A stretch of DNA of 64,000 nucleotides from Myxococcales bacterium (lineage in GTDB: Bacteria > Myxococcota_A > UBA9042 > UBA3505): positions 4,484 through 68,483 of the forward strand of contig PBVT01000100.1 of the NCBI GenBank assembly GCA_002728755.1, given 5' to 3'. Positions 4,643 to 58,114 of the stretch are shown here, in pieces. The translations under genes and the position numbers were made by a program. Numbering within the stretch: the stretch's first letter is position 1; every line of letters begins with the position of its first letter. The notes beneath the pieces were generated by a model. It was not told where the DNA came from and made no database searches. It worked only from the letters and a program-made list of their open reading frames with translations.

Positions 4643-4748
4643 TTTTCGAAGGCTGATTTACCATGTATGACGTTGGAAACACAACGAAAAACAAGTGTAA
4701 TAACACGTCCCATACCCTCTGGAATCCCACAGAAACAGCGTATGCACG

Positions 4749-4793: not shown

Positions 4794-4828
4794 ATCGCAC
4801 TTCACGACCCGTCGTCCCAAGTGAACGA

Positions 4829-5209: not shown

Positions 5210-5213
5210 AGTT

Positions 5214-10133: not shown

Positions 10134-11069
10134 TCAGCCGGCGTGTTCCTGATCTTCTAGCCAACGCTCGAGATCAAGAGCGGCCTGACAGCCAAGACCA
10201 GCGGCGGTTACCGCTTGCCGGTAGCGATGATCGACACAATCGCCCGCAGCGAATACGCCCGGGATATTCGTCATCGTATGGTCTTCCGGAACGATATATC
10301 CAGATTCGTCCAGATCGATGATCCCACGGAAAATCTGGGTCGTCGGATCGTGACCGATGGCGAGGAACAATCCTTCCAACGCGATCGTAGACTCTTCACC
10401 GCTCTGGGTGTTTTCCACCTTAAGCCCTACGACCTCACGCCCGGTCTCGGTAAGCACTTCCGTGACGCTATGGTTCCAAAGGAACTCAATCTTGGGATTG
10501 GCCAACGCACGGTCTTGCATAATCTTGCTGGCGCGAAGCTTGTCGCGCCGATGAATCACGGTCACCTTGCTCGCAAATTTCGTCAGGAAGTTCGCCTCTT
10601 CCATGGCGGAATCACCACCACCGACAACGGCGATCTCTTTATCTTTAAAGAAGAACCCATCACAGGTTGCACAAGCCGAAACGCCGTAGCCCTTAAGGCG
10701 GGTTTCACTTTCAAGACCCAGCCAACGAGCCTGGGCGCCGGTCGCGATAATAACACCTCGACCCTTTACGACCTCCTGTTCGTCGACCGTGATGGCAAAC
10801 GGACTACTCGTAAAGTCCACAGATGTCGCAGAGCCGAACCGGCATTCGGTGCCAAAACGCTCAACCTGTTCCTTGAATTTCTGCATAAGCTCTGGGCCCA
10901 TAATCCCATCCGGAAATCCGGGATAGTTTTCCACGTCCGTGGTGATCATGAGCTGCCCACCCACCTCGATACCTTCGAGCAGCAGTACGCTGAGGTTGGC
11001 TCGTGAAGCATATAAGGCTGCGGTATAACCGGCTGGTCCGCTACCAAGAATTACAACATCGTAGATCAT
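10134..11069 (-). CDS. trxB: Thioredoxin-disulfide reductase
   Basis: FAD motif GSGPAGYTAA, redox-active CATCDGFF, NADPH motif; 311 aa. Confidence 0.9.
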   Translation of the reverse strand: MIYDVVILGSGPAGYTAALYASRANLSVLLLEGIEVGGQLMITTDVENYPGFPDGIMGPELMQKFKEQVERFGTECRFGSATSVDFTSSPFAITVDEQEVVKGRGVIIATGAQARWLGLESETRLKGYGVSACATCDGFFFKDKEIAVVGGGDSAMEEANFLTKFASKVTVIHRRDKLRASKIMQDRALANPKIEFLWNHSVTEVLTETGREVVGLKVENTQSGEESTIALEGLFLAIGHDPTTQIFRGIIDLDESGYIVPEDHTMTNIPGVFAAGDCVDHRYRQAVTAAGLGCQAALDLERWLEDQEHAG

Positions 11070-11117
11070 TCATCTCTCCATCTGGGAGTCACTCGCAGGA
11101 TTGGGCGAGCGCTCCGG

Positions 11118-11471
11118 TCATAGCAATTCTTCTATCCGCTCGGTTGGTCGAGCCACAACGGCCCGGTCACCTTGAATAACAATGGGTCGTTCGATCAGGC
11201 GTCTATGTTCCAACATGGCCGCCAGGATCACGCTATCTTCCGAATCGGTCGCGCTGAGTCCCAACTCGCGACTTATGGCCTCTTTACTGCGAAGCAGTTC
11301 TCCTGGCCGATAACCGAGAAGACCAAGCACCTGTTCGATATCATCCGCCGTTAAATCGGCGCTCATATACTCGAACACATCGGGTTCCATACCGCGATCG
11401 CGCAGGAAACCCAGGGCCGCACGTGACTTACTGCAACGAGGGTTGTGCCATACACGAAAACTAGCGCTCAT
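11118..11471 (-). CDS. ArsC/Spx-family protein (arsenate reductase/YffB-like)
   Basis: Family match on the motif VWHNPRCSKSR… over roughly 117 aa. Confidence 0.7.
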   Translation of the reverse strand: MSASFRVWHNPRCSKSRAALGFLRDRGMEPDVFEYMSADLTADDIEQVLGLLGYRPGELLRSKEAISRELGLSATDSEDSVILAAMLEHRRLIERPIVIQGDRAVVARPTERIEELL

Positions 11472-11601
11472 GAAGAAACTCCATTTCAACCGATCCCGAA
11501 GGGATCCGTGTCATAAATTCATCAATTACGCAACGGTGATTCACGTTCTCCACGGGCGGTGAACAATCGCCCCGTAGAGAGAGTCATGCGGAGCCCATAT
11601 T

Positions 11602-12195
11602 CTAATGCATAGCTGGGCGAAGAGGAGTCTCCAGAAGGATCTTTTTCTCCAACTCTTTCATCTCTGCAAAACGCTTCCGTGTCCGATCTGCATCTTCCAG
11701 ACGAGCCAAGTCGTAGAAGACTCGACCGTGGGTCGCTTCCGCGGAAGCAAAACGTCCGAACATCTCCTTCAGATCTGCATCGGGGTGGTGTTCTGCCAAT
11801 AGCTGTAACCGCTCACAGGATCGCGCCTCAATCAGGGCGGAAACGAGTAGACGATCGATATACCGCTCGATCCGTGTCCCCTCCACTTCATCGACCAGGG
11901 CCTTTGCATAGGGATCGCCAAGATCCGGACCGAGCTCCCATCCCCGATCCGTTATCTTTTGGTGCACCTCCGCAAAATGACCCAACTCTTCCTGCGCCAA
12001 TTCAGCCATGGCGGCTACAAGCTCTGTCTTCTCTGGATATCGAGAGATCAGGCTCAAAGCGGTGCCAGCGGCTTTTCTCTCGCAATGGGCATGATCCTTC
12101 AAGAGGGCTTCCGTATTCGCTAAAACCAATTGCAGCCATTCACGATCGTGTTGCGCTTTATCTGGTTGCATGGGTCTACTCCTTTCCAGGCCCAT
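11602..12195 (-). CDS. miaE: tRNA-(ms2io6A37)-hydroxylase MiaE-like ferritin-fold di-iron protein
   Basis: The motif DHAHCERKAA…EELGHFAE resembles the MiaE signature DHLxCExKAA / EExxH. Confidence 0.55.
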   Translation of the reverse strand: MGLERSRPMQPDKAQHDREWLQLVLANTEALLKDHAHCERKAAGTALSLISRYPEKTELVAAMAELAQEELGHFAEVHQKITDRGWELGPDLGDPYAKALVDEVEGTRIERYIDRLLVSALIEARSCERLQLLAEHHPDADLKEMFGRFASAEATHGRVFYDLARLEDADRTRKRFAEMKELEKKILLETPLRPAMH

Positions 12196-12928
12196 CGAAC
12201 GGCCGTTGCCCTGTGGCTATCAAACTCACGCCAAACGGGAGATTAATATGACGAAGGAGATGTCGCTCCCCTCCGAGGACCGATTCAAGAAGACCATTGA
12301 TGGCACGTGGCATTACCTTCACATCGCTTGAGGCTGCATCGCCCTCTTCCACCGTTTTCGACCCGATTAATCGCTGGGCAACCCGGACGGACGCGATGGG
12401 AGGAAATAGGAAAAAGTTGTAGTAGGAGATCCGCGGGACTTCAAAACCGCCCCCTTGAAGCAGGTTCTTGAAGGCCTTCTTTCGGTAGCGACGGTGATGA
12501 CCCAGCGCCACATCGTGCTCCGACCAGAGAAACTGCCAGGCGGGTACTGTGCTGATCAATATGCCCCCGGGCTTCAATATTCGATACAGCTCCTCTACTG
12601 CTTTCTCGGGATGTTCCAAATGCTCGAGGATGTCGAGACAAAAGATCAGATCGAACTGCTGGTCTTTCAGCGGAAGCTCTTCGGCGTTTGCCTGGATTAA
12701 TTCTGCGTTGGGTGCTCGTTCTCGGGCTAGTTCCAGACATAAAGCCGCGCGATCGATTCCCACAATCCGTGGTAGATGCGAGAGCCAACTCAAGGTTGTA
12801 CCGGGCCCACACCCCACATCGGCCACCCGCAGCTTTTCCAATCCACCGCCGACAGCATCGTTGGCCCAGTTCAGAATTACCCGACGGGTACCCCGAAACC
12901 AGAAGTGGCGGTCCATGACCGCCGCCAT
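12176..12928 (-). CDS. Class I SAM-dependent methyltransferase
   Basis: Motif I VADVGCGPGTT and post-I motif FDLIFCLDILEHL. The likely start is MAAVMDRHFWFRG, which avoids overlap with pepP. Confidence 0.75.
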   Translation of the reverse strand: MAAVMDRHFWFRGTRRVILNWANDAVGGGLEKLRVADVGCGPGTTLSWLSHLPRIVGIDRAALCLELARERAPNAELIQANAEELPLKDQQFDLIFCLDILEHLEHPEKAVEELYRILKPGGILISTVPAWQFLWSEHDVALGHHRRYRKKAFKNLLQGGGFEVPRISYYNFFLFPPIASVRVAQRLIGSKTVEEGDAASSDVKVMPRAINGLLESVLGGERHLLRHINLPFGVSLIATGQRPFDGPGKE

Positions 12929-42004: not shown

Positions 42005-42290
42005 TTTTCTTCTCAGACCTCAGACTACACTTTTACCAGCAGAGCCGTACACAAGCCAGAAACACTCAAGTCAAAACATATAATCCCATCCTATCCAACG
42101 TTTAGTTCGACAAACCAACGAATGAAATGATCTGCGTTCAACGCCACAAGCCAGAAAGTTAAACATCGTGTATCATACGGATACGACTACTTTTTTTGAC
42201 ACGAGGCCATTCCGGCCCAAAAATCGGCGCAGGTGGTTTCTACAATTTGAATATGGGGCAAGGCGGGTAACGCCGCTCGGCGGAGCAACA

Positions 42291-43346
42291 TTGGCAAGCA
42301 AGAATCTACTAGGGGTTGATATCGGTTCTCACACCATTAAGGTGGTGGAGATCAGTCAGACTAAGAAGAATGTGGAACTTCTTCGGTTTGGAGTGGCGGA
42401 GCTCCCATCGGACGCTATCGTGGACGGCGCGTTTGTGAACTTCCCTGTCGTAGTAGAGCGATTACGCGAGCTGCTTCGTAAACATAAGTTCAAGCAGAAG
42501 CGATGTGCCCTGGCCATTAGTGGAACAGCTGTCATCGTGAAGAAGATCAGTCTTCCGCAGATGACGGAAGATGAGCTCCAGGAAAGTGTGCAGTGGGAAG
42601 CGGAACAGTACATTCCCTTCGATATCAAAGACGTGAATGTTGACGTTGAAGTTCTGAACCAACATCCGGGTCAGGGACAAATGGATGTTCTACTCGTCGC
42701 CGCCAAGAAACAGGTCATTAATGATCATGTGGCGGTAGCCAGAGATGCTGGGCTGAGCCCAACAGTGATGGACGTCACAACCTTCACGGCCCAAAACTGT
42801 CTGGAATTGAATTACGGTAACTTCCCGAACGAGGTTGTCGCTCTCGTAAATATCGGGGCATCCAGCATCAACCTGAATGTCTTGGCTGATGGGACAACGG
42901 CCTTCACTCGGGACATCCTGGTGGGCTCTAGCGTAATCACGGAAGAAATCCAGAAGCGATTCAATCTCCCGTGGGATGAAGCGGAGCGATACAAAACTCG
43001 TACGCCCGATCAATTACCGAATCAGAGCCTCGCGCGCGAAATAAAGAAACTTGTAAAACGCGTAAGTGATACACTTGCTACGGAGTTGCAACGATCCCTT
43101 GATTTCTTTGCAGCTACAACAGCAAATATGCAGATAGCCAAAGTATACCTCTCCGGTGGAGGCGCAATGAATCCAGAGCTTGTGTCCGTAATTTCGGACC
43201 GCCTGGCCTTGCCCACGGAGATCGTCAACCCATTCCAGAACATCACGATCAACCCGAAGTTCGTAGACTTAGAGCTGCTGCGACATCACGCGGCACAACC
43301 GGCGGTGGCCGTAGGTCTGGCTTTACGACGGCAGGATGAACAATGA
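42291..43346 (+). CDS. pilM: Type IV pilus assembly protein PilM (actin-like ATPase)
   Basis: LLGVDIGSHTIKVVE… A TTG start at 42291 gives MASKNLLGVDIG, a canonical PilM N-terminus; the ORF-track start at 42168 is too far upstream. Confidence 0.85.
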   Translation: MASKNLLGVDIGSHTIKVVEISQTKKNVELLRFGVAELPSDAIVDGAFVNFPVVVERLRELLRKHKFKQKRCALAISGTAVIVKKISLPQMTEDELQESVQWEAEQYIPFDIKDVNVDVEVLNQHPGQGQMDVLLVAAKKQVINDHVAVARDAGLSPTVMDVTTFTAQNCLELNYGNFPNEVVALVNIGASSINLNVLADGTTAFTRDILVGSSVITEEIQKRFNLPWDEAERYKTRTPDQLPNQSLAREIKKLVKRVSDTLATELQRSLDFFAATTANMQIAKVYLSGGGAMNPELVSVISDRLALPTEIVNPFQNITINPKFVDLELLRHHAAQPAVAVGLALRRQDEQ

Positions 43347-44065
43347 TTCGCATTAACCTATTACCCGTACGCGAGCGACGAAAACGTCGTGCTGGAGCGC
43401 AACTCCTGGTCATTGGAGCTGCACTCCTCTTCGGACAGGTATATGGGCTTCAAATGGTCCATCAGCAGAAGAGCTCTCGCGTAGAAAAAATGCGAAAGCA
43501 GCTCAGAAAAACGCTCAATACAAATAAGAACCTTGAGGAGATCAAATCCGCTGCTACAGCAAAGGAAAGTGAACTCAAGAAGGTCAAGAATCAACTCAAG
43601 TCCTATACAAAACTTGAGGCCTACCGTTCCGGACCGGCCAATATGCTGCTTTTCCTCTCTTATGCTTTGAAAGTGCGTGCGTCTGACAACACCACCGCAC
43701 CCAAAGATGGGATTGGTAGCAAGATGGAAAAGAAGGCATTAACTTCCGCTGGTTGGCGCGTGATTCGTCGAGAAGATCCGGAGACGAACCTGGAGATCCC
43801 CGAATGGGACCCAAACCAGATCTGGATACGCAAACTCATACAGATGGAAGACGGTCTGGTGATCGAAGGTGTCGCTATCAATCATGAGTCGGTCGCTGAA
43901 TTCAGTCGTCGCTTAAGTACCGGCCCCTTCTTCCCGGAAATGAGACAAGTACAACAAAAGGAATTTCTCGATACACGTCTTGCACGCAAGACCATCCAAT
44001 ATCGGCTGGAATCCAAGATCGATTATGAACTTCCGGAATTGCCCGACGAGCCCGAACCTAACTAA
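43343..44065 (+). CDS. pilN: Type IV pilus assembly protein PilN
   Basis: MIRINLLP N-terminus, a single TM helix, and an ATGA overlap with pilM. Confidence 0.85.
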   Translation: MIRINLLPVRERRKRRAGAQLLVIGAALLFGQVYGLQMVHQQKSSRVEKMRKQLRKTLNTNKNLEEIKSAATAKESELKKVKNQLKSYTKLEAYRSGPANMLLFLSYALKVRASDNTTAPKDGIGSKMEKKALTSAGWRVIRREDPETNLEIPEWDPNQIWIRKLIQMEDGLVIEGVAINHESVAEFSRRLSTGPFFPEMRQVQQKEFLDTRLARKTIQYRLESKIDYELPELPDEPEPN

Positions 44066-44089: not shown

Positions 44090-44893
44090 ATGGGTGCATT
44101 TCAAGAACAAATCCAAAGACTTTCGTCCCTGAGTATGGGCTCGAAGATACTGGCGTTTGTAGTCATATCACTACTCATCGATGCCGGTTTCTATCTGACC
44201 AGAATCAAACCCGCTCAGGGTGAGTTGGAGCAGATGTCCCGTGAGATTCGGAACAAGGGTCGAAAGAATAATACTTTAGAAAAGCAAGGGTTCGACAAGA
44301 AACTGAAAACCGCTTCTCTGAAGATCGAAGAAATCGAACGTGAACTCGCCAAACGAGAAGAGACCCTTCCCAAAGAGGAACGTATCGAAGAGCTCATCTC
44401 GGACCTGGAAAAACTCGCAGCCGTAAGTAATTTACAAGTTGGAGCCTACACTCGTCTGGCAAAGACCGTCTTTACTGGTGGTGGCACAAAAAAGAAGAAA
44501 AGGAAGAGCAAACAGAAGTTCGGACTGGTGCCAGTACAGATGAATGTTGAGGGGACAACAGAGAATCTCCTCAAATTCTTCTTATTATTGGGTAATCCGG
44601 ATGGAATGAAACGACTGGTAAGCATCAGTGATCTCCAGATCTCGTGGGCCAACCCATCTTTGGGCCAGAGAGGTGACTCTGTATTCGAGAACTGCGGACT
44701 GACCGACCAGGAACAAAATCTAGTAGATGATGAACGCCTCCGCCTCTCTCATAAAGAGCTGGTGGCGAAGTTAGAAGGCCTTTTGACGCAGGTATGTATT
44801 GAGAGACAGGGGCAAATCAAAGCCCAATTTACCGTAAACGCCTTCCAGCAGTTGAGCAAAGAGGAATTACGGCGCCTTAAAACTAAAAGATAA
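44090..44893 (+). CDS. pilO: Type IV pilus assembly protein PilO
   Basis: Single TM helix, coiled coil, and synteny with the rest of the pil block. Confidence 0.75.
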   Translation: MGAFQEQIQRLSSLSMGSKILAFVVISLLIDAGFYLTRIKPAQGELEQMSREIRNKGRKNNTLEKQGFDKKLKTASLKIEEIERELAKREETLPKEERIEELISDLEKLAAVSNLQVGAYTRLAKTVFTGGGTKKKKRKSKQKFGLVPVQMNVEGTTENLLKFFLLLGNPDGMKRLVSISDLQISWANPSLGQRGDSVFENCGLTDQEQNLVDDERLRLSHKELVAKLEGLLTQVCIERQGQIKAQFTVNAFQQLSKEELRRLKTKR

Positions 44894-44908: not shown

Positions 44909-45622
44909 ATGAAACAAATAATTCGACATACCCTGCTTTTTATTCTGGCCATTCTCATCGCATTTGCCACGGTTTCGTGTGGGGGCTCCGAGACAAAGAG
45001 CCTCAAAGAAAAAGACCGTGTTGTCGAAGCACGAAAGCAAAGTTCCGGCACAAAGACTCGTAGTAAGAAGTCAAAAAAGCGCCGAAAGAAAAAGAAGAAA
45101 AAATCCGGGGAAGAGTTGACTGGCCCATGGGCCTCCTACGCCAAGTATTTTGAGAAGTATCGCATACGTGGAACCAAATATGGTGTAACCAAGCCTGGCT
45201 TCTTCCACGATCCCTTCCGTCCTCGACTGAGTTTACTCCCCGACCGTCAGCGAACTGTCGATCTACTAACCAAACTGCAGCCGCTGGCCAGTGCTGGTGA
45301 TGGAGACGGAACCGATAGTGGCGAAACGATAGAAAAGACACCTCTTCAGCTGTATGCATTGGATCAATACCGTGTCACGATGATCAAGACCGGAATCATC
45401 CGGGCTGAGGCCGCACTCGTAGACCCCGACGGTCGTCTATGGACGATCAATATCGGGGATTCCGTAGGGAGCAACCGGGAATATGTGGAAGAGATTCGTC
45501 AATACGAAGTTCTTTTCCGTCGTCCTGGCCATCTCGAGCCCATTACAAAAAGCTTGAAGCCTCCGATTCTGGAGCTCGTCAAAAAATCAGACGAACATCT
45601 CCTTATGGAGGTCGGTCGATAA
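44909..45622 (+). CDS. pilP: Type IV pilus lipoprotein PilP
   Basis: Lipobox TVSCGGS, Lys-rich linker, C-terminal beta domain, and synteny. Confidence 0.7.
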   Translation: MKQIIRHTLLFILAILIAFATVSCGGSETKSLKEKDRVVEARKQSSGTKTRSKKSKKRRKKKKKKSGEELTGPWASYAKYFEKYRIRGTKYGVTKPGFFHDPFRPRLSLLPDRQRTVDLLTKLQPLASAGDGDGTDSGETIEKTPLQLYALDQYRVTMIKTGIIRAEAALVDPDGRLWTINIGDSVGSNREYVEEIRQYEVLFRRPGHLEPITKSLKPPILELVKKSDEHLLMEVGR

Positions 45623-45801
45623 AATCGACCCTCTTTCGAGCAAACATAGCGCGTGAAGGTTGGTTGTGGATCCATTTCTGCACCCAAACAAATCAGCAAA
45701 CTCGATGTCTAACGACACGATTTTGAATGAAATTCACCTATTTTTTTGACGGTTTGTCGAGGCAGGCTACGATTTTAAGTACGCATCGAGAGGAGTGTTT
45801 G

Positions 45802-48800
45802 ATGTTTCATCGCAGCCAAATTATTCGGCTGGTAGGGGTACTATCAGGTATATTTCTGTGTATTGGACTCGCTAATGGCGCTCCAAACCAGGAAACCGGC
45901 CTCAATCAGATTGAAAAAATAGACCGGCAAGAAGAAGATAATCTGACCCGGTTACAGATCCATTGTTCAAAAGAGCCGACGTTCACGGTGTTTCGTTTAC
46001 ACGATCCCGTTCGAGTCATCATCGACGTCATTGGCGCGAAGACTCTCGACTCCGGAACAGCATATACCGTTCAGAATGGGGTGATCGATCAAATTGAGCA
46101 CCGAACCTTCTCTCGGGACGGACAATCCATTGGACGTATAACAATCGGTCTATATGAAACGACTGCATACGACGTAAAGCGTAATGGCAATACAATTGAA
46201 CTCCTCATCGATGCTGCCAAACGTCGACAAAGCAATCCGACCAACACCAACGAAGAAATTGAAATACAGCGTCGTGAGCTTGAGCAATTACAATCTCGTA
46301 TCACGACCGAAACCAGCAAAATTGATTCGCTTCTCTCCGAACGAGCCAAGTTATCGGCGAAGCAGGAGAAACTCCAAGGCCAGATTTCAAAGCTGGAATC
46401 CAAACGCGCATACAGTGGTGAATTGCAGCAGAAGGTCTCTGAATACGAGACACGCCTGACGGAGCTCCAATCCAAGATGGCTACCTCTGTAGCCCGACAT
46501 GGTGCCTTACGCGATGCTGTAGCTACCATACGCCGCCTGGAGAACGATCAGGCTCAACTCGCCAAAGAGCTCAAATCCGCGCGCTCGGAACAAACCGATG
46601 CTCGGACTACGATGATTCGTATAAACCGAGAATTGACCCAGACGCGTTCCCAACTTGAGAAACGAGAAACTACTCTCGTTACGGCTCAATCGAAACTCAA
46701 TAAATTGCGAACCAAGAATGGCGAACTCTCCGACCGTGTAAATAAAGCGGAAACAGACGCAGAAAACGCCAACAAAAGATTACGTACAATTCGCGAAGAG
46801 TCAGACGAAAGCCTCGCTATGGCCGATAAGCGAATTCGAAGTCTGTCGAGCCGAATCTCGGATGCAAAACAACGCCTCGCCCGTACAGAAAAGACCGAAC
46901 AAACATATGTAGAGCAGACAAAGAAGCTTAAGACTCTTGAAGCTACTCTTCGATCCCAGTTGGTGAAGGAAAAGGGACTGCGCGCGCAACGTGAGCAGGC
47001 GCTCAAAAAGAGTAATAAGGAATCAAAGAAAGCCCAGAAGGCTCTGGAAACCGCGCTAACCCAGCAGAAGAAACATGAAAAGCGCGTACGCAAGGCCTAC
47101 GAAGAAAGAATTACCAAACTCGAAGCACGTTTGGTTGCTCAGAAGAAGTTGCGCGAAACCCAGAAACTCGCGGCTCGTGCTCGTGCCATCCTGGAAGCAC
47201 GCTCCATGGTCACGAAAGAGCTCGAACAGCTTATGAAGAAACGTGACAAGACTGCCAAGGTCGTCACCGATTTAACGGAAAAACGAAAACAATACGAAAC
47301 CGAGATCGCAACCATCGAGTCCGCGATCAAGTCTCGTCAGACAGAAGTACGTACCGCCGAGAAAAAACAAAAGAAGGCATTCGCGAAACTCGAGACCTTG
47401 AATACACGTATCGGTAAGGCGGAGAACACGATCCAGGAATTGGATAGTCAGCGTTCCACATTGCGCACAGAGCTCGCCCAGTTGCGCCAGCAAACCGATA
47501 AATTACGTGCCAAACGAGTCGAGCGCCAAAACAACCTTCAGGAGTTACAAAATAAGAACCAACGCCTCAGCGCGCACGTAGATGAGCTACAGACAAGCCT
47601 CAGCGCGTTAACTAAGCGTATGGATTCCGAACGCCAACAACACGACCGGACTGTTGTTGGTATGAGCGCAGAGCGTTCTGTCCTGAAGAAAAAGATTATG
47701 ACCCTCGAAGAGGCTAACTCCATCGACAAGGCTCAGGTCGAACAACTGCAAGCAAAGATTAAGTCGCTCTCTGATAACCTGAATGGTGCGGAACAATCCT
47801 ATCGCCAAACAATCCAGGCCGTAGAGAAAGAGCGTGCCGCTCTCCGCACGAGAGTTACCAACCTACAGACTCAGCTTACGGGAAATACCACTGGGCCAAT
47901 CCAGAACGAACAGGTGGCACAATTACGGGCAATGCTCGCAGCCGTACAACAAACCGCAGCCGACGAGCGCGACGCAGCTACCCGCCGCGCCAAAACAGAG
48001 GTCGAGCAGTACCAGGTCGAAATACAAAGACTCACTGGCATCTTAAAGAAAGCGCAGGGCACAGCGGACACAACCTCTCCGATCATGCCCACCTTGCAAA
48101 AACACCTGAATACCGCACACACCCAGCTCAAAACCGCGGAGACCGAGCTCATCGAGCGTAGCCGGGAAGCAGTAAAGGCTCGCGCAAGCGCTGTCCAGGC
48201 TCATGAAGAGAGTGCACGACTTCGCTCCGAAGTACAGTCTCTAAAGACCCAGTTGGACAACGCCAGCAGCTCTCGCGTGCAGCGAGTTCTCTCTCTGGAA
48301 AAACAAATTAGTGATCTGCGCACACAACTAAAGGCGCAGAGTCATACGAAAACGAAAGCGAAAAAATACCAGACACAAAAAGTGCAGGTCACCGTACAAC
48401 GGCTCGAGGCTGAGCTAGCAACCCTACGGTCCCAGCTCCGTACAGCACGCACCGAAAAGGTCGCCGTACAAGAGACCGCACAAGAAGAGAAAAAGAAGAG
48501 TGAAAAACTGGCTATGAGGGCCGACGAATACCGGACCAAAGCAGAGGAATTCAAGGCCAACGCGAGCCGACTCAAGACGGAAGCGAACGAACTCCGAACC
48601 AGAATCCAAAACCTCGAAAACGGTCAGCAGGGAAAAGCCGCTGCTGAATTACGTCAATTCCTTGAAGCGGCCGAACGTGCGGGTCGCATCGCCAGGGCGA
48701 AAGCTGCTTCAATGAAGGCCGCAGCCCAGAAATGGCAAACCGAAGCCAATCGCTCCCACCAAGCCAAAGAGCGAGCAATGGCCGACAAGAAACGCGCACA

Positions 48801-50709
48801 GGTACTCGCCCAGAAGAGCCTTGATGAAGTACAAAGATTACGCCATCAAGCACAAAATCTCCGTGCGAAGTTAAAGGAAACGGGATCAGCCCAGATCAAA
48901 GATATACGTTTCGAAAGTCCCAAAGAAGGACCTCGCGTAGTCATTACCGCAACGTCAGCATTTGAATACGACATCACTGAGCGAGGTGATTACCTGGACC
49001 TCCGTATTCGAAACGCCAACCTTCCCAATCATCTCGAACGAATTCTCGATACCCGCGCCTTTGGTGGGCCTATCGCAGAAATCGCAACGTACGCCGACAC
49101 ATCCGACAAGACTCTCGTACATGTAAGGGTCACTCGCTCGGGTCCATCCAAAGGTGGCATCATCAGTGGTGGTAAGCAGTTGGTATGGGCTTTCAGTCCA
49201 ACCAGCGAGGGAATGGCTCAGACGGAAACTACGGAAGGCAAGGCCCGCTGGGGCGTACATGGAGTGGCTTCTGCCAGTTATAATCATCAGCCAGGTGGAC
49301 CGCCTTCCGCGGCACCCACCGGTGGTAGTTCACAGGCCAGCTCCTCCCCCGCTACGGGAAATTATCAGTATATTGATCCTTACTTCGGACGCCGTCGTAA
49401 GAAACGCAAATACCGCGGCCGCAAGATCAATCTTACGATCAAAGATGCGGATATCCTCCACGTACTCACCTTCCTCGCCAAAGAAGGAAACATCAATATC
49501 ATCACGAGTGAGGAAGTGGTCGGGACCGTATCCTTCCATTTCGAGAATATCCCCTGGGATCTTGCACTCGAGATGGTCTTGAAATCCAAAGGATTGGCCT
49601 ACAGGCAGGAAGAGTCCGTATATCGAATCGCGTTGGCCGATAGTATTCAGAAAGAATACGAGCGTGAAGCCGAGATCAAGAAGAAGGTCCAGGAATTCAA
49701 ACAGCTCGTTGTAAAGCTAATCCCCCTTAGTTACGCGGAAGGAAAAAAGGTCGCGGAACGAGTCGCTGAAATTCTCTCTACGAAGGGAACCGTCGGTGTC
49801 GACGAACGCACAAACACCCTGATCGTAAAAGATGTAGAAGAACATATCCTCGCGGCAGAAGACCTTGTCCACCGACTGGATACCCAGACACCCCAGGTCT
49901 TAATTGAGGCTCGAATCGTTGAAGCCACAGACACCTTCTCCACCGAGCTTGGTGTTCAGTTTGGTGGTAGCACCCAATACGCTCCAATCTACGGTAATGA
50001 AACAGGCCTGATGTTTCCCGGCGTAGTCGGTGTTTCCGGTGGTGCCGACGATCCTCTCGCTCCTGAATTCGGATTAATCTCCGGTGATGCGCCAAACTTC
50101 GCGATCAACATGCCAGCAACCGCCGGTCTCGGCTCTGGTGGGGCCCTGTCCCTCACTCTCGCGAGCATTAATGGAGCGAGTACTTTGAATCTGCGCTTAT
50201 CCGCTGCAGAAGAAGAAGGGAAGGTAAAGATCATCTCCAGTCCACGCGTATCTACGATGGATAATGTACAGGCAAGTATCGAACAAGGTGTCTCGATCCC
50301 CATCAGTGTCGTGAGTGCGAACGGTGTAAACACGCAGTTCTTCCAGGCCGATCTGAAACTAGACGTAACACCACACGTTACTCCAGACGCCATGATCTCC
50401 ATGAAGGTTGATATTCAGAAGAATGAGCCTGATTTTGGACAGCGAGGTTCGTCTGGTAATCCCACGATCCAGAGGAAAGAAGCACATACTCAGCTTCTCG
50501 TGAAGGACGGTGAAACGGCTGTTATCGGTGGTATCTTTACTCGAAACACATCCATCGGTGAGAAACGCATCCCGTTCCTCGGTAGCCTGCCCCTTCTGGG
50601 TTGGATGTTCCGGAATAAGTCCAAGGTCGATAAGAGAAGCGAACTGTTGATCTTCATCACACCCCGCATCGTAAATCGGGAAGCGTCCAAGCCCAAGACC
50701 GATAAGTAA
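45802..50709 (+). CDS. pilQ: Type IV pilus secretin PilQ with two AMIN domains separated by an ~880-residue coiled-coil insertion
   Basis: ATG at 45802 lies after AGGAG. Signal peptide, then AMIN-1 (~45940-46250), continuous heptad-rich coiled coil (~46255-48897), AMIN-2 (~48898-49150), Gly/Ser linker, N0/N1 domains from ~49426, and a C-terminal secretin domain (…GETAVIGG…RIPFLGSLPLLGWMF…LLIFITPRIV). One uninterrupted ORF of 4.9 kb. Confidence 0.85.
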   Translation: MFHRSQIIRLVGVLSGIFLCIGLANGAPNQETGLNQIEKIDRQEEDNLTRLQIHCSKEPTFTVFRLHDPVRVIIDVIGAKTLDSGTAYTVQNGVIDQIEHRTFSRDGQSIGRITIGLYETTAYDVKRNGNTIELLIDAAKRRQSNPTNTNEEIEIQRRELEQLQSRITTETSKIDSLLSERAKLSAKQEKLQGQISKLESKRAYSGELQQKVSEYETRLTELQSKMATSVARHGALRDAVATIRRLENDQAQLAKELKSARSEQTDARTTMIRINRELTQTRSQLEKRETTLVTAQSKLNKLRTKNGELSDRVNKAETDAENANKRLRTIREESDESLAMADKRIRSLSSRISDAKQRLARTEKTEQTYVEQTKKLKTLEATLRSQLVKEKGLRAQREQALKKSNKESKKAQKALETALTQQKKHEKRVRKAYEERITKLEARLVAQKKLRETQKLAARARAILEARSMVTKELEQLMKKRDKTAKVVTDLTEKRKQYETEIATIESAIKSRQTEVRTAEKKQKKAFAKLETLNTRIGKAENTIQELDSQRSTLRTELAQLRQQTDKLRAKRVERQNNLQELQNKNQRLSAHVDELQTSLSALTKRMDSERQQHDRTVVGMSAERSVLKKKIMTLEEANSIDKAQVEQLQAKIKSLSDNLNGAEQSYRQTIQAVEKERAALRTRVTNLQTQLTGNTTGPIQNEQVAQLRAMLAAVQQTAADERDAATRRAKTEVEQYQVEIQRLTGILKKAQGTADTTSPIMPTLQKHLNTAHTQLKTAETELIERSREAVKARASAVQAHEESARLRSEVQSLKTQLDNASSSRVQRVLSLEKQISDLRTQLKAQSHTKTKAKKYQTQKVQVTVQRLEAELATLRSQLRTARTEKVAVQETAQEEKKKSEKLAMRADEYRTKAEEFKANASRLKTEANELRTRIQNLENGQQGKAAAELRQFLEAAERAGRIARAKAASMKAAAQKWQTEANRSHQAKERAMADKKRAQVLAQKSLDEVQRLRHQAQNLRAKLKETGSAQIKDIRFESPKEGPRVVITATSAFEYDITERGDYLDLRIRNANLPNHLERILDTRAFGGPIAEIATYADTSDKTLVHVRVTRSGPSKGGIISGGKQLVWAFSPTSEGMAQTETTEGKARWGVHGVASASYNHQPGGPPSAAPTGGSSQASSSPATGNYQYIDPYFGRRRKKRKYRGRKINLTIKDADILHVLTFLAKEGNINIITSEEVVGTVSFHFENIPWDLALEMVLKSKGLAYRQEESVYRIALADSIQKEYEREAEIKKKVQEFKQLVVKLIPLSYAEGKKVAERVAEILSTKGTVGVDERTNTLIVKDVEEHILAAEDLVHRLDTQTPQVLIEARIVEATDTFSTELGVQFGGSTQYAPIYGNETGLMFPGVVGVSGGADDPLAPEFGLISGDAPNFAINMPATAGLGSGGALSLTLASINGASTLNLRLSAAEEEGKVKIISSPRVSTMDNVQASIEQGVSIPISVVSANGVNTQFFQADLKLDVTPHVTPDAMISMKVDIQKNEPDFGQRGSSGNPTIQRKEAHTQLLVKDGETAVIGGIFTRNTSIGEKRIPFLGSLPLLGWMFRNKSKVDKRSELLIFITPRIVNREASKPKTDK

Positions 50710-50740: not shown

Positions 50741-51301
50741 ATGGGTAGCCGAATCGTAATCGTCGGAATGATGGGAGTGGGTAAAACCACTGTAGGTGCT
50801 CAATTAGCTCAGATCATGGAACGCGGTTTCTCCGACCTTGATGCGCTCGTATGCGAGCTGGACTCTACAGGCCGTACTATCGGAGACATTATACGAGAAG
50901 ATGGGGAACAAACCTTCCGCGAGATGGAGCTCCATGCGTTTCAATCCTGGATGGAAAACGCGCATTATGAGACTGGGGTCCTGGCAACAGGTGGAGGACT
51001 TGTGACACAATCTGGTGCTAGAGCCTTACTACAACAACCTGATGTTCTGGTTATCTGGCTTACAGCAACAGTCGCCGTTCTTTCCGAACGATTAGGTGCG
51101 TCGCCCGGAATCGAACGTCCCCTTTTAGATGGTGGCCCGTCCCTCAACGCCCGGATGAAAGAATTAATCGCAAATCGATACACTCTCTACGAATCCGTTG
51201 CTGATATAGTCGTCGATACAACGACTTTGAACCCGGACATCATCGTACAGAAATTATGGGGACAGATTTCCAAGGGAAAGGAACCATGTCCCGTTTCGTA
51301 G
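50741..51301 (+). CDS. aroK: Shikimate kinase
   Basis: Walker A GMMGVGKTTVG and the pil-aroK-aroB synteny. Confidence 0.85.
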   Translation: MGSRIVIVGMMGVGKTTVGAQLAQIMERGFSDLDALVCELDSTGRTIGDIIREDGEQTFREMELHAFQSWMENAHYETGVLATGGGLVTQSGARALLQQPDVLVIWLTATVAVLSERLGASPGIERPLLDGGPSLNARMKELIANRYTLYESVADIVVDTTTLNPDIIVQKLWGQISKGKEPCPVS

Positions 51302-52386
51302 TATCCGCATCCACAGGTTCCTACCCGGTCTTCGTTCAAAGCGATGTTCCAGGCATCAAAGAGATTCCAGAACATCTATTCGCCAACGACGGCCGAATAA
51401 TTCTAATCACAGATGAACGTGTCGCAGGGTTCCATGGAGCGACCATCGAAAAACACCTCGTGGGACTTGGATTCCATCCTGTTGTTTTGACAGTTCCAGC
51501 GGGCGAACGCGCTAAGAAGCCGAATACCGTAATCCGACTCTGTCGTGAAATGTTACAACATGGTGCCCAAAGAGGGACCCCGGTATGTGGGTTTGGAGGG
51601 GGGGTCGTCGGTGATATCGCCGGATTCGTCGCGAGCATCTATATGCGGGGAGTGCCACTCCTACATATCCCAACGACACTACTTGCCCAGGTCGATAGTA
51701 GCGTAGGCGGTAAGACGGGGGTCGATCTACCCGAAGGCAAAAATCTCATCGGCACGTTCTGGGCCCCCTCTTTCGTGTGGAGTTGTACATCCTTTCTTTC
51801 ATCTCTCCCGGCCCGAAGGGTAAGAGAAGGGCTCTCGGAAGCCTTGAAATATGGCTACATCGCTCGGCCCGACCTATTGGACCGGTGTCTACAGATCCCC
51901 CCCCGCTCCCCCAACGAGGACCCGGACCGATTATCGAACTTTGTCTTCGACTGTATCTCAGTAAAAGCTGATGTCGTAACCAAGGACGAACACGAAAAAG
52001 GTCTACGAGAAATTCTGAATTTCGGCCATACCATTGGTCACGGGATCGAGCGTATCATGGGCTATCGAAAAATAACCCACGGAGAGGCTGTCGCAATTGG
52101 AATGGTCGCCGAATTGGCCCTCGGTGAAGTCCTCGGAGTTAGCCCCAAAGGAATTGCTCAGGACGCGAGTGAACGCCTCTCTAGGATCGGCCTTCCCACA
52201 ATGATCCCATCAGGCATCGACGCCCAAACTCTTGTCGAAGCCGTGTCTCACGACAAGAAAAACGTCGGCAAAAAACGTACAATTATCACGATATCGACCC
52301 CGGGTACTCCAGAACGGATTCAACTAACCGATAGAGAATTACTCAAAAACTTGAACTTAGCCCAATGTGCGGTGATAAATAGATAA
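51286..52386 (+). CDS. aroB: 3-dehydroquinate synthase
   Basis: GGGVVGDIAGF…, VDSSVGGKTG… and HxxGH metal ligands. The start at 51286 has an SD and overlaps aroK by 16 nt. Confidence 0.9.
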   Translation: MSRFVVSASTGSYPVFVQSDVPGIKEIPEHLFANDGRIILITDERVAGFHGATIEKHLVGLGFHPVVLTVPAGERAKKPNTVIRLCREMLQHGAQRGTPVCGFGGGVVGDIAGFVASIYMRGVPLLHIPTTLLAQVDSSVGGKTGVDLPEGKNLIGTFWAPSFVWSCTSFLSSLPARRVREGLSEALKYGYIARPDLLDRCLQIPPRSPNEDPDRLSNFVFDCISVKADVVTKDEHEKGLREILNFGHTIGHGIERIMGYRKITHGEAVAIGMVAELALGEVLGVSPKGIAQDASERLSRIGLPTMIPSGIDAQTLVEAVSHDKKNVGKKRTIITISTPGTPERIQLTDRELLKNLNLAQCAVINR

Positions 52387-52399
52387 GGGAAAAAAAGTT

Positions 52400-53200
52400 A
52401 TGAATCCGCAACAGTATTTACAGAAGAAACTCATGAAGCCGGTCATAGTCCTACTATCGATCATTTCTTGTCTTTTCGCCTGCGTAGCCGAGAAGCCACA
52501 TGTTATGTTTATACATGGCAATGCACGGCTGGATCTCGAATTGAATGCATGCGCCATCGGGTCAGCAAGCCTCGATATCAAAACTATCGGATGGGGAGTG
52601 CTGGATCTGAATCTGTCACGGGAATACCAGATGAATACGATTGTCGAGAATAAGACGATCGCGAGTGAGACGATTCCCGGTGTAAATCCACTGCAGATCA
52701 ATAACAACACGATACAGGTGTCCGTGGTTCGTTTCGATTACCGTGTACCGGACGCCGACACCGGAGGACCGGTGGTCGATGTTCCCCAGACGACTATCAT
52801 TCGACATCTACCGGACTCGATTGAATCGCAATCCTTACGGATGCTCTCTTTCCCGTCCATCGATCCGAATGTCGCCGACGTTCTTCTGAATGGACCCAAC
52901 TCCAAAGCATATTGGGCAAGTCAGCCCGTCGAGAACCAGGTACCACCTGTTGAAATTCTCGTCGATATACAGGTTGAAGGTGTTCTAGTGGATGGCACAT
53001 TAGTACGGTCCAACCGGTTCACCTACCCCATCTATGTATGTAAGGGTTGTCTCCTGGACGATTCTCCTGCGGACTGCACTGCACCGCCGACGACAGATAT
53101 ACCATGTGTCTTCGGTCAGGATGACGTCGTGGACTGCCGCCTTTGCTATAATTTAAAGGGCGATCTGGACCTCTGCGATCCAAACCAGCTGTCCTTTTAA
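52400..53200 (+). CDS. Hypothetical lipoprotein with Cys-rich C-terminus
   Basis: Lipobox SCLFAC; eight C-terminal Cys; no recognised family. Confidence 0.45.
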   Translation: MNPQQYLQKKLMKPVIVLLSIISCLFACVAEKPHVMFIHGNARLDLELNACAIGSASLDIKTIGWGVLDLNLSREYQMNTIVENKTIASETIPGVNPLQINNNTIQVSVVRFDYRVPDADTGGPVVDVPQTTIIRHLPDSIESQSLRMLSFPSIDPNVADVLLNGPNSKAYWASQPVENQVPPVEILVDIQVEGVLVDGTLVRSNRFTYPIYVCKGCLLDDSPADCTAPPTTDIPCVFGQDDVVDCRLCYNLKGDLDLCDPNQLSF

Positions 53201-53274
53201 GAGGCGGAAAAACTAGCACTGGATCGAACGGTTCAACTCTTGCTATGGTCTTCCCATACTCAGTATGGCTAACC

Positions 53275-53589
53275 ATGACGCAACGAGATACCATTCGCCG
53301 CCAGGACATTCATATCGCGGGACGCAGGCTCACCATACAGACGGACCGAGACACCGAGGTTCTTGAGAGCATCTGTGATTACGTGAATGCTCGCTACAAC
53401 GAAGTACAGGCAACTCCGGGGCTTTCTCAGGCCAATCAGAGTGTAATGTTAGCCTTGTGCATCGCAGAGGATCTATTCGCGGAACGGCAGCTGCACAACC
53501 AGAAGATCGGCCGTGTGCGCAGAGAAGCGAACCAAATCCTCCAGCGACTGGAAAATCTCACCTCGCCAGCAGAGCCCGACTCGGAATAG
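53275..53589 (+). CDS. zapA: Cell division protein ZapA
   Basis: About 105 aa, internal start MTQRD…, ZapA-like I…G-x-Y-xI pattern and C-terminal coiled coil; sits next to 5-FCL as in many bacteria. Confidence 0.65.
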   Translation: MTQRDTIRRQDIHIAGRRLTIQTDRDTEVLESICDYVNARYNEVQATPGLSQANQSVMLALCIAEDLFAERQLHNQKIGRVRREANQILQRLENLTSPAEPDSE

Positions 53590-55518: not shown

Positions 55519-55594
55519 GACGAATCGTAAAGATCGGTTTTGATCCTGGTGCGTATGTACCTTCATCGACATGTTCCCCGATGGAGGTTCCCCA

Positions 55595-58114
55595 ATGCAC
55601 CGAACAATCCGAATAAGCGTTCCACTCTGGGCGCTCCTAGCCATATTCTTCCTAACCAATAGCGCCCTCGCCCGCACGGTCGTAGCACCCCCTGACAAAA
55701 CACAAGATGCCGGTACGTTAGAGGCATCGTCCGCCGACGGTGAAGAGGTGGGCCGTTTTCCTTTGCAGCACACCGACGTGAAGGCCGAAATCTCGGGCTT
55801 CATAACACGTGTCACAGTTACACAATTTTATGAGAACCCTTTCGATAAGACGATCGAGGCTATCTATACCTTCCCGCTGCCTGACGGAGCCGCAGTCGAC
55901 CGAATGGACATGTTGATTGGTGACCGGAAAATTGCCGGTCAGATCAAGAAGCGAGCCGAAGCCAAGGCTATCTATGATGCCGCCAAACAACAGGGACGGA
56001 CGGCATCTCTGCTGACCCAGGAGCGTGCCAATATATTCACGCAGGCCCTGGCCAATATTCATCCTGGCGATAAGGTTCGTATTCAAATCAGTTATGTTGA
56101 GACCCTGGTATACGAAGACGGCCGATATACGTTCCGCTTCCCGATGGTTGTTGGACCTCGCTATATACCCGGCGCACCGCTCGTACAAAACCAGGCGGGT
56201 AGTGGCTGGGCTCAGGATACCAGTCTTGTACCCGATGCATCACGGATCACTCCCCCGGTCCTGAAGCCAGGACAACGTTCGGGGCACGACATCTCCGTTT
56301 CCGTGAAGCTAGACGCCGGTGTACCCATTCACAAACTCTCTACTCCCTCCCACAACATCTCCAACAAAAAGCACAGCGCGTCTAGACGCTCCGTGCTGCT
56401 CGACCCAAGCGATAGCATTCCCAATAAAGATTTTGTTCTTCATTACCACGTCGCCGGTAAACGACCCGAGCTCGCCGTACTGGCTCAAAACGATCCCGAG
56501 AATGGCGGTCATTTCATGCTTCTCGTTCAGCCCAAAGCCGACTTCCGCCTCAAAGAAATCACGCCCAAAGAGATGGTCTTTGTTGTGGACAACTCAGGCT
56601 CCATGAGTGGTCAGCCGATGGCCGCATGTAAGGGCCTGGTGCGTAAGGCTCTTAAAGAGATGAACCCAGATGATACCTTCCAGATTCTTCGTTTCTCCGA
56701 GCGAGCGAGCGGTATGGCCCGGGCTCCCATTGCCAACACCCCGGCCAACGTAAAGCGTGGGCTGAAATATATAGACAGCATGCGTGGTATGGGCGGCACC
56801 AATATGATCGAAGGTATCAAAGCCGCATTGGATATCCCCGAAGACTCCGATCGTATGCGCGTAGTCTGGTTCCTTACCGACGGCTATATCGGTAACGACG
56901 ACCAGATCCTTGCTGCCATCCAACAAAAGATTGGTAACGCTCGTCTATTCGCCCTGGGCGTGGGCTCAAGCCCCAACACCTATCTACTCAATAACATGGC
57001 ATGGAATGGTCGTGGAGCGGTCGATTTCATTCGCCCAAACCAGAAAGCACAGGCTTTCGTGGACCGATTCTACAACCGTATCAGCAGCCCATACCTCACC
57101 GATATCAAGATCGATTGGAAGGGCCTTGAGGTAGAGGAAGTCCTGCCAAAACGTATTCCTGACCTCTATACGGGGCAACCCCTCGTAGTGTATGGCCGAT
57201 ACAAGAAGGGTGGTAGAGCCCGTGTCGTGGTCAACGGAAAGATCCGCGGCCGGAACCATTCCTTCCCGGTGTCCGTCACCCTCCCCTCTGGCACCACCGA
57301 GCAAGAGTCCATCGGTGCGATCTGGGCGCGCAATAAGATCAAGCGTCTCAACACCTCTCTGCTGGCTCGCTACAATCGTAACCTCGACAAGAAGGCCGTC
57401 GTTGAAGAAATCACAGACGTAGCTCTGCGCTATCGCCTGATGAGCCAATACACAGCCTTCGTCGCTGTAGAGAAGACGGTTCGACGTAAACCCGATGGCA
57501 CCATCGAAACCGTGGTACAGCCCGTCGAAATGCCAGAATTCGTATCCCACAAGGGTGTATTCGGTCGTGGAGCCGGCACTCGCTCGTCTATTCGCTCCTA
57601 TAAACGCCAGGGTTCTGTTCAACTCTACAACCACGCCCCTACGGGTCAGGCACACGGCATGGGCCGCGGCTATAGCGGTAGCGGCAGCGGTGGCGGTGGC
57701 ATAGGCGTTGGACATAGCGGATTAAAAGGAGTGGGGTCTGTAGCTCCACCCACCCCGAAAGAAGAAAACAGTCTGGACAAGGAATCTGGTATCGCCAAAA
57801 CCGCTGGTGTCAAAGTGAAGATCAGCACCATACAAGGCGGTAGCTCCAATGCTCGCAAAGAGTTGAGCAAGCTGGTTTCACTTGGATTACGAAAAAGACA
57901 AGGCTGCCTACAACGCCGTAGTGAGTCCAAAGCGTCCCATATGCGAATCAAGCTCACATTCGCAGCCGACGGCACCGTGGCTGATGTCGATATACTCGAC
58001 CAGGGCACAGTCGGAAATCTGACCGTACGCTGTCTACTCTTCGCACTGAAGACGATCTACACCCCTACACTGAGCGGACAGACATTTAAGCTATCGCTGA
58101 ATGTCTCCCCATAA
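55595..58114 (+). CDS. Secreted VIT (vault/inter-alpha-trypsin) + von Willebrand factor A domain protein
   Basis: GGAGG SD before the ATG at 55595; signal peptide; VIT domain; vWA MIDAS motif DNSGSMSG; Gly-rich region and C-terminal domain. Confidence 0.8.
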   Translation: MHRTIRISVPLWALLAIFFLTNSALARTVVAPPDKTQDAGTLEASSADGEEVGRFPLQHTDVKAEISGFITRVTVTQFYENPFDKTIEAIYTFPLPDGAAVDRMDMLIGDRKIAGQIKKRAEAKAIYDAAKQQGRTASLLTQERANIFTQALANIHPGDKVRIQISYVETLVYEDGRYTFRFPMVVGPRYIPGAPLVQNQAGSGWAQDTSLVPDASRITPPVLKPGQRSGHDISVSVKLDAGVPIHKLSTPSHNISNKKHSASRRSVLLDPSDSIPNKDFVLHYHVAGKRPELAVLAQNDPENGGHFMLLVQPKADFRLKEITPKEMVFVVDNSGSMSGQPMAACKGLVRKALKEMNPDDTFQILRFSERASGMARAPIANTPANVKRGLKYIDSMRGMGGTNMIEGIKAALDIPEDSDRMRVVWFLTDGYIGNDDQILAAIQQKIGNARLFALGVGSSPNTYLLNNMAWNGRGAVDFIRPNQKAQAFVDRFYNRISSPYLTDIKIDWKGLEVEEVLPKRIPDLYTGQPLVVYGRYKKGGRARVVVNGKIRGRNHSFPVSVTLPSGTTEQESIGAIWARNKIKRLNTSLLARYNRNLDKKAVVEEITDVALRYRLMSQYTAFVAVEKTVRRKPDGTIETVVQPVEMPEFVSHKGVFGRGAGTRSSIRSYKRQGSVQLYNHAPTGQAHGMGRGYSGSGSGGGGIGVGHSGLKGVGSVAPPTPKEENSLDKESGIAKTAGVKVKISTIQGGSSNARKELSKLVSLGLRKRQGCLQRRSESKASHMRIKLTFAADGTVADVDILDQGTVGNLTVRCLLFALKTIYTPTLSGQTFKLSLNVSP

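Follow-up and report, generated by a model that had tools for sequence, protein, structure and literature searches.

How does a type IV pilus secretin come to contain almost 900 residues of coiled-coil-like sequence, and what might such a region do in the periplasm? The question is raised by the pilQ gene in a 64,000-nucleotide stretch of DNA from a Myxococcales bacterium (contig PBVT01000100.1, positions 4,484 to 68,483), referred to below as the window. An initial examination of the letters alone (hereafter the sequence-only reading) had described an uninterrupted PilQ of 1635 amino acids (aa) in which one AMIN domain stands on each side of a coiled-coil-type stretch of about 880 residues, followed by a normal N0/N1/secretin part. 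Profile searches, periodicity analysis, structure prediction and comparison with relatives bore out this description. Most likely, the coiled-coil-like region (the "rod") serves as a periplasmic spacer or tether that would hold the first AMIN domain, a predicted cell-wall anchor, tens of nanometers away from the secretin pore, along the sacculus; we put the probability of this inferred role at roughly one half. The protein consists of a signal peptide, AMIN1, the helical region, AMIN2, a disordered linker and the N0/N1/secretin domains, laid out in the window as follows.

45802..50709, + strand: pilQ, 1635 aa plus stop codon (Pfam, TIGR02515, nearest structure 3jc8).
45802..45879, + strand: putative Sec signal peptide, residues 1-26, read by eye, with cleavage after ...LANG.
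45901..46221, + strand: AMIN1, residues 34-140, distal domain, predicted to bind peptidoglycan (custom hidden Markov model, HMM, 34-140; Pfam 40-128).
46252..48879, + strand: heptad-periodic helical spacer, residues 151-1026 (periodicity, register tracking, AlphaFold2 or AF2 models, and the ratio of non-synonymous to synonymous substitution rates, dN/dS).
48886..49206, + strand: AMIN2, residues 1029-1135, proximal domain, predicted to bind peptidoglycan (custom HMM).
49207..49416, + strand: Gly/Pro/Ser-rich disordered linker ending with a basic patch, residues 1136-1205 (sequence; AF2 per-residue confidence score, pLDDT, 30-41).
49417..50676, + strand: N0(STN)-N1(Secretin_N)-secretin core, residues 1206-1625 (TIGR02515, Pfam).

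In the six-frame list of open reading frames (ORFs), a single open frame extends from position 45727 to 50709 on the + strand. Initiation at the ATG at 45802, which is preceded at a suitable distance by GAGAGGAG, yields the 1635-aa product. The database copy of the protein likewise has 1635 aa; the NCBI copy, MBR59013.1, begins at an upstream ATG, counts 1660 aa and is labelled "hypothetical protein" from a Myxococcales bacterium metagenome-assembled genome (MAG). A Pfam scan found all three families that the initial examination had proposed to look for, namely AMIN in two stretches (38 bits against a cut-off of 20.5), Secretin_N (37.9 bits, cut-off 28.2) and Secretin (PF00263, residues 1468-1624, E = 1e-47, 162 bits, cut-off 27.5), together with STN. 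The STN score, 26.0 bits, is slightly under its cut-off of 28.4; the region lies within the TIGR02515 match, and PilQ structures can be aligned with it from residue ~1200 onward. TIGR02515, the NCBIfam model for PilQ, matches residues 1206-1625 over its entire length (positions 1-428 of 428) with 410.7 bits against a cut-off of 284.35, and the NCBIfam models for GspD, SctC and MshL all score under their cut-offs on this protein. The nearest solved structure is that of Myxococcus xanthus PilQ, 3jc8 (E = 1e-138). Every test of PilQ identity that could be applied came out positive: the window protein is a genuine operonic type IVa pilus secretin.

The interval between AMIN1 and AMIN2 measures 888 residues, is rich in A, E, K, R, L, Q and T, and contains only three prolines (699, 760 and 763). 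Compared with shuffled sequences, its hydrophobic residues recur with a period of 3.5 (z = 16.7) and at the 7/3 harmonic (2.33; z = 7.6), other periods showing no excess. A simple register tracker followed heptads over residues 151-1026 with about 10 shifts; LIVMFYW make up 55% of the a and d positions (70-78% when Ala is included), against 35% when the same tracker is applied to shuffled sequence. AF2 modelled about 90% of the spacer as helical. With the rise of 0.1485 nm per residue of a coiled coil, the 876 residues of the heptad-periodic part would reach about 130 nm if extended, in keeping with the earlier estimate of more than 100 nm for a straight coil. The helix is broken at three sites.

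47881..47904, + strand: helix break 1, residues 694-701, TGNTTGPI (Gly/Pro; loop in both AF2 runs; break kept in P0002, an orthologue described below).
48061..48090, + strand: helix break 2, residues 754-763, TADTTSPIMP (Pro760/Pro763; loop in both AF2 runs).
48622..48633, + strand: helix break 3, residues 941-944, NGQQ (Gly941/Gly944; turn in both AF2 runs; register shift at 944/945).

Other identities for this region were considered and set aside. About 18% Leu+Ile+Val, with strong heptad phasing, rules out a single alpha-helix (ER/K) domain; some Ala-rich relatives with low z, such as P0119 (z = 0.3), could differ from the heptad-phased norm. The resemblance to SMC or myosin tails that the sequence-only reading had pointed out holds as a generic similarity, the composition of SMC, Rad50 and myosin rods being that of coiled coils in general, but falls under every family cut-off. 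An SMC/Rad50 protein was rejected as an identity: the match covers arm segments only (60.8 bits against a cut-off of 567), the flanking domains are AMIN, ATPase head, hinge and zinc hook are all missing, and PilQ lies in the periplasm. Foldseek returned no significant match for the helical part, the AMIN domain alone finding matches. Expansion of repeats as the origin of the rod was likewise discarded, as neither kind of repeat is present: the search for tandem DNA repeats in the spacer DNA gave one trivial 19-bp match and nothing else, and that for internal protein repeats gave weak off-diagonal self-matches, none of them significant. The rod-coding DNA (46500-49000) displays an AT skew of 0.32-0.43 on the coding strand, compared with ~0.0-0.2 in the flanks, and an unremarkable GC content; a skew of this kind might flag such rods in raw sequence.

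By the custom HMM, the two AMIN domains bound the spacer at 46221 and 48886, close to the initial estimates (~46250 and ~48898). The AF2 model of AMIN1 is a beta-sandwich with pLDDT 75-86, and AMIN2 is modelled with pLDDT 80-89. Foldseek matches the AMIN2 model to the B2 domain of Neisseria PilQ (E = 9e-6), to the AMIN domain of AmiC and to M. xanthus PilQ. In M. xanthus, the AMIN domains of PilQ are needed for recruitment of the protein to septum and poles (Herfurth et al. 2023, PMC10653833); the same study proposes that they bind septal and polar peptidoglycan and describes the linkers between them as flexible.

An obvious concern, raised by the sequence-only reading itself, is that a normal pilQ was merged with a coiled-coil gene by chimeric assembly or an overlooked frameshift. 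The probability of such an artefact is negligible. An identical 1635-aa product is encoded by at least four independently assembled contigs from different sources (21.6, 57, 86 and 93.5 kb); the 90%-identity cluster of the window PilQ also includes a Tara Oceans fragment. An orthologue 82% identical to the window protein (P0002) is found, with the same gene order, in a second locus, L004; a separate MAG (L001) provides a second, independent assembly of P0002, on a contig that terminates inside the rod. We considered counting L001 as a third lineage and rejected this, as it belongs to the same lineage as P0002 and counts only as an independent assembly. Also at odds with an artefact are the absence of stop codons and of repetitive DNA, the low dN/dS of the spacer (see below), the existence of about 100 diverse homologues with the same layout, and a 2249-aa relative on nine contigs. 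Contigs of the relatives often end within the rod (L001, positions 1-2873; L002, 1-1506; many "partial" entries), pointing to a region that is hard to assemble. Many relatives are deposited as "partial" PilQ, the window protein as a "hypothetical protein". Rod-truncated contigs and such labels imply that the architecture is systematically under-reported.

Comparison of the window and L004 genes showed that synonymous sites are saturated (dS ~2.2), with dN/dS values of 0.08 for the spacer, 0.042 for AMIN1 and 0.026 for the secretin core. Identity amounts to 74% in the spacer and 96% in the core. Over the entire spacer (888 residues versus 887) we found a single, one-residue indel, at residue 752/753, immediately before helix break 2. 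As judged from this pattern of substitutions and indels, the rod is under purifying selection for its length as well as its sequence.

To assess the occurrence of long PilQ proteins, residues 436-1635 were searched exhaustively against 1.84 billion cluster representatives. The best 150 matches included many very long PilQ proteins, up to 2249 aa, so that the search for homologues of this length suggested by the sequence-only reading brought up spacers of up to 1502 aa and revealed that the window protein is not the longest. From this search and an earlier set of matches, we retained 131 complete relatives with two or more AMIN domains, one of them N-terminal (all family counts below refer to representatives of 50%-identity clusters). 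The length of the spacer that follows AMIN1 is bimodal in this set, defining two classes.

Long class, n = 97: spacer 198-1502 aa, mean proline content 1.3%, heptad signal with median z = 7.3 and z > 3 in 85%.
Short class, including Myxococcaceae, n = 34: linker 14-119 aa, mean proline content 13.7%, no heptad signal.

The long spacer is placed after the first AMIN in 97 of the 97 long forms. The window spacer lies in the upper range of lengths, four representatives exceeding 1200 residues. Both the 2249-aa PilQ (locus L006), found on nine contigs, and a Kofleriaceae-type homologue of 1349 aa (locus L005) are encoded in a pilMNOPQ-aroK/B context. All the family sources that were looked up are MAGs or metagenomes, labelled Myxococcales, Deltaproteobacteria, Myxococcota or Kofleriaceae; no cultured carrier was found in 26 cluster look-ups and 120 named matches, isolate genomes not having been searched systematically. 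One 976-aa relative, P0162, has a 243-residue spacer after AMIN1 that is acidic and Pro-rich (21% Pro, net charge -60), with no coiled coil, and represents a third way to lengthen this first linker.

Family-wide data also bear on the strong net charge of the window spacer, +63. A basic helix could bind polyanions (exopolysaccharide, DNA or anionic peptidoglycan), for instance while the pore serves for DNA uptake or secretion, and spacers are indeed positive in 73 of the 97 members, reaching +23 per 100 residues. The charge is not conserved, however. Values per 100 residues extend from -5 to +23 with a median of +1.9, the remaining 24 members being neutral or acidic. These figures led us to reject net positive charge as a defining property of the rod, and they make a polyanion-binding function extremely unlikely.

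The AMIN domains provide a clue to the origin of the rod. When long and short forms are compared, identity averages 28% between first AMINs, 26.5% between last AMINs and 27% between middle AMINs, as opposed to 15-20% in cross-comparisons; AMIN1 of the window protein is orthologous to the Myxococcus-type AMIN1, and AMIN2 to the Myxococcus-type last AMIN. The excess of first-first and last-last similarity over the cross-comparisons implies that the rod elaborates linker 1. To judge from this orthology, which rules out fusion of a foreign N-terminal AMIN-plus-coil module to PilQ, the rod is an expanded or replaced AMIN1-AMIN2 linker, usually accompanied by loss of the middle AMIN. The term "insertion" used by the sequence-only reading is therefore right as to the presence of a long spacer and inexact as to how it is best described. 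In 69% of pairs, conservation is somewhat higher for AMIN1 than for the last AMIN.

On a tree of the secretin core the long and short states are clustered, requiring 12 parsimony changes versus about 30 under permutation (minimum 25). Within the long forms length is labile: pairs at a core distance of 0.04-0.1 differ by 135-255 residues (for example 697 versus 442 aa at a distance of 0.044), spacer identity is 33-54% in close pairs (core distance 0.04-0.18), and length follows phylogeny only weakly (Spearman 0.18). Indel sizes are multiples of seven in 30 of 107 cases, with about 15 expected, which fits a heptad constraint and is not fully independent of the periodicity. Continuity of lengths from 198 to 1502 aa, the low Spearman value, frequent indels and a spacer evolving much faster than the core are what one would expect if the rod were a neutral, expandable, low-complexity linker whose length drifts while selection keeps only helicity and solubility. 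We consider this quite unlikely nonetheless, as neutrality is difficult to reconcile with a dN/dS of 0.08 and a length kept at saturated dS, with heptad phase and asymmetry between a and d positions (see below) maintained across 97 lineages, with the clustering of the long and short states, or with the expense of synthesising and exporting 880 additional residues in each protomer.

The tether reading leads to the question of how the rods are paired. In the window protein, Ile and Val occupy 26% of the a positions and 6% of the d positions (31 versus 8 residues), Leu predominates at d, and attractive g-e' charge pairs outnumber repulsive ones by 22 to 10. The same tendencies extend to the family: Ile/Val are more frequent at a than at d in 80 of 97 long-spacer members, and g-e' pairs are attractive in 1436 cases and repulsive in 805. 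As the tracker scores a and d identically, such asymmetries are not built in. A beta-branched a/d asymmetry and attractive g-e' pairs classically typify coiled coils of two parallel strands. The core-position statistics thus favour, as far as residue patterns can tell, a pairing of rods of adjacent protomers in parallel and in register. If identical chains pair in register, drift in length among close relatives would be easily accommodated.

Rods could also pair between machines. Under this alternative, rods of different rings, alone or with a partner, would form a periplasmic lattice, attached to peptidoglycan, that organises the polar pilus machines in the way of a cytoskeleton-like element rather than as independent tethers. 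In its favour one can cite the 12-15 long rods that each ring would carry, with their sticky heptad cores, an extended length (~130 nm) on the scale of a cell pole, and the N-terminal ~470-545 residues of the rod, which contain no Pro or Gly-Gly break and are modelled with low confidence by AF2, as if a partner were missing. A specific lattice geometry is hard to square with rapid divergence (spacers 33-54% identical where cores are ~90% alike), and no conserved partner gene was apparent in the four loci compared; on balance, such a scaffold appears rather unlikely.

Several observations weigh against an extended, parallel tether. Rod length varies about 7-fold in the family and shifts fast between close relatives, which argues against a function as a precise ruler. 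One AF2 prediction, made like the other with the monomer, to which partner chains are invisible, suggests antiparallel intramolecular packing of residues 643-1026, which would shorten the structure to ~40 nm. In this run, covering residues 600-1140 (pLDDT 77), successive helices of 51/52 and then 86/89/83 residues are separated by turns, located at 847-851 and at the Pro/Gly sites, two of which match independent register shifts (854/855 and 944/945); the C-terminal third may be formed, according to this model, by a helical hairpin and a three-helix bundle adjoining AMIN2. The two AF2 runs conflict over residues 761-940, which make up one helix in the first run and two in the 600-1140 run. Finally, the a/d asymmetry is present in N- and C-terminal segments alike and so does not separate extended from folded models; a greater Ala content in the C-terminal core is the sole difference between the segments. 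The a/d statistics were accordingly discarded as a means of deciding whether a parallel rod at the N-terminal end gives way to a folded C-terminal part. As for the first AF2 run, its N-terminal turns were put in helix-favouring sequence with pLDDT <50. A recurrent hairpin module of ~53 residues was rejected for the family as a whole: there is no preferred segment length, and spacers average about two Pro or Gly-Gly breaks, the longest unbroken segment having a median of 442 residues and a maximum of 1028. Models and residue patterns leave two forms for the rod, which may be either an extended parallel coiled coil of ~130 nm or a chain of antiparallel bundles of ~40 nm; even the most compact rod would much exceed the gap between outer membrane and wall.

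The fold-back of AF2 models into helices of equal length is also what would be seen if bundles of ~40 nm stood perpendicular to the envelope, in the manner of SlpA or Omp-alpha, and adapted the secretin to a thick or multilayered envelope; in SlpA-type proteins, the coiled coil can vary in length with the envelope spacing (bioRxiv 10.1101/2022.05.18.492506). We regard a vertical spacer as very improbable. There is an AMIN at both ends of the rod, whereas two different layers should be bridged; differences of hundreds of residues between close relatives are implausible as a reflection of envelope thickness; unbroken segments have the long median and maximum given above; and, as detailed next, PilN and PilO are of nearly ordinary length.

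The genes surrounding pilQ speak to the last point.

42168..43346, + strand: pilM (Pfam PilM_2, E = 2.9e-81).
43343..44065, + strand: pilN, 240 aa (Pfam PilN, E = 2.1e-06).
44090..44893, + strand: pilO, 267 aa (Pfam PilO, E = 7.1e-08; M. xanthus PilO of 3jc8, 205 aa, E = 6e-4).
44909..45622, + strand: putative pilP, 237 aa (position between pilO and pilQ).
50741..51301, + strand: aroK, shikimate kinase (Pfam SKI, E = 1.1e-33).
51256..52386, + strand: aroB, 3-dehydroquinate synthase (Pfam DHQ_synthase, DHQS_C).

Pfam thus accounts for pilM, pilN, pilO, aroK and aroB of the pilMNOPQ-aroK-aroB block described by the sequence-only reading, PilP being assigned by position only. The putative PilP has a lipoprotein-like N-terminus (…ATVSC-GG) followed by an extreme poly-Lys/Arg tract, KKSKKRRKKKKKKS, and gave no Pfam, NCBIfam or PDB match; towards the C-terminus it looks like a small beta domain. 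At the pilP position of L005, the ORF shows only a faint PilP match. The pilM-N-O-(P)-Q order is the same in L004, L005 and L006, and the pilQ-aroK-aroB linkage is kept in all four loci; aroK and aroB, separate and overlapping in the window, are fused in L005 (positions 11050-12585) and L006 (13754-15379), giving proteins of 511-541 aa. Downstream of aroB, a conserved ORF with no family match (52400-53200, + strand) encodes 266 aa in the window and 267 aa in L004 and L001. It adjoins a gene for ZapA (53245-53589, + strand; Pfam E = 9e-11). A VIT plus von Willebrand A protein of 847 aa (55571-58114, + strand) occupies the same position in L004.

Residues 1-106 of PilN are collinear with M. xanthus PilN (3jc8; E = 5e-12), and the two alignment-complex proteins are not much longer than their M. 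xanthus counterparts (240 versus 225 aa for PilN, 267 versus 205 aa for PilO). Near-ordinary lengths of PilN and PilO are an indirect argument for a periplasm that is probably of ordinary width, in which the rod could not stand perpendicular to the envelope and would have to lie roughly along the sacculus. PilQ rings are 12- to 15-mers in solved structures. A ring of this kind would bear a set of outriggers, each keeping an AMIN1 anchor at a distance from the pore and together widening the peptidoglycan footprint of the machine; the outriggers would set the permitted distance of the pore from the AMIN1 binding site, septal or polar peptidoglycan such as the AMIN domains recognise in M. xanthus. 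The PilN of L006, the locus of the 2249-aa PilQ, counts 362 aa (positions 4462-5550). Alignment-complex proteins may co-vary with the rod.

Comparison with known systems sets the long-rod proteins apart. Like the window PilQ, that of Thermus thermophilus is enlarged, but its larger periplasmic part comes from stacked globular N-domain rings along the pilus axis, not from a coiled coil between AMINs. Braun's lipoprotein, Lpp, is likewise a periplasmic coiled coil joining outer membrane to peptidoglycan, although not within a secretin. This 58-residue trimer has a lipid anchor and a covalent link to peptidoglycan, is oriented at right angles to the envelope, and sets a spacing by its length. The PilQ of M. 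xanthus (3jc8/3jc9) shares the N0-N1-secretin core and the pilMNOPQ operon; it differs in its 901 aa and three AMINs, separated by Pro/Ala-rich linkers of 69-119 aa (13-22% Pro) that give no heptad signal, where the window protein has two AMINs and an 888-residue coiled-coil region between them. The closest functional analogy, without homology, would be to the SlpA/Omp-alpha/OmpM class, in which a peptidoglycan-associating N-terminus, a coiled coil of lineage-variable length and a C-terminal outer-membrane barrel follow one another (bioRxiv 10.1101/2022.05.18.492506). There, however, the wall-binding domain is SLH (S-layer homology) rather than AMIN, the barrel is trimeric and porin-like rather than a secretin, and the coil is perpendicular, much shorter (a predicted 45 nm in Omp-alpha) and not followed by a second wall-binding domain before the barrel. 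Neither SLH nor OMBB domains were found in the window PilQ with Pfam and NCBIfam.

An association of AMIN with a TolA-like charged helical region has been reported in delta-proteobacteria as architecture viii, separate from that of PilQ (iv) (de Souza et al. 2008, PMC2572700). The composition of TolA domain II resembles that of Ala/Glu/Lys-rich family members such as P0013; the description of architecture viii mentions no secretin bearing such a region, nor lengths or heptad character. No coiled coil in PilQ is described in that paper, in a 2018 survey of myxobacterial pili (whose supplements list Pfam architectures but not protein lengths), in the 2023 PilQ localisation study or in a 2025 secretin paper. 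A search of full-text literature for secretin or PilQ together with coiled coil found nothing relevant, most subscription journals being outside its coverage. The remark in the sequence-only reading that no such secretin was known agrees with this absence from the papers found, and the long-rod architecture of PilQ is probably undescribed; the protein is not an isolated case, at least 97 cluster representatives sharing its layout.

PilQ is among the best-studied outer-membrane channels, and its AMIN domains are thought to act near the pore through short flexible linkers, docking the pilus machine on peptidoglycan of septum and poles. A large and phylogenetically coherent family whose long rods are under selection implies a mode of wall anchoring or machine positioning that is absent from current models of the type IV pilus. 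Going further, rods of 30-220 nm might constitute an unrecognised periplasmic structural system in a large uncultured clade of Myxococcota, a polar network of parallel rods spreading out from each PilQ ring over the sacculus and anchored by AMIN1 at their far ends; we offer this as a tentative and, at present, doubtful extension. If true, the network would connect pilus machines with peptidoglycan farther away, and perhaps with one another, positioning them and bearing the load of retraction, and an outer-membrane channel would contain a periplasmic cytoskeleton-like element. The family itself shows that coiled-coil connectors to the wall are not limited to the SLH-type proteins of deep-branching bacteria, and its spacers of 198-1502 residues offer a natural length series in which the reach of the anchor can be related to pilus placement, spacing and force transmission.

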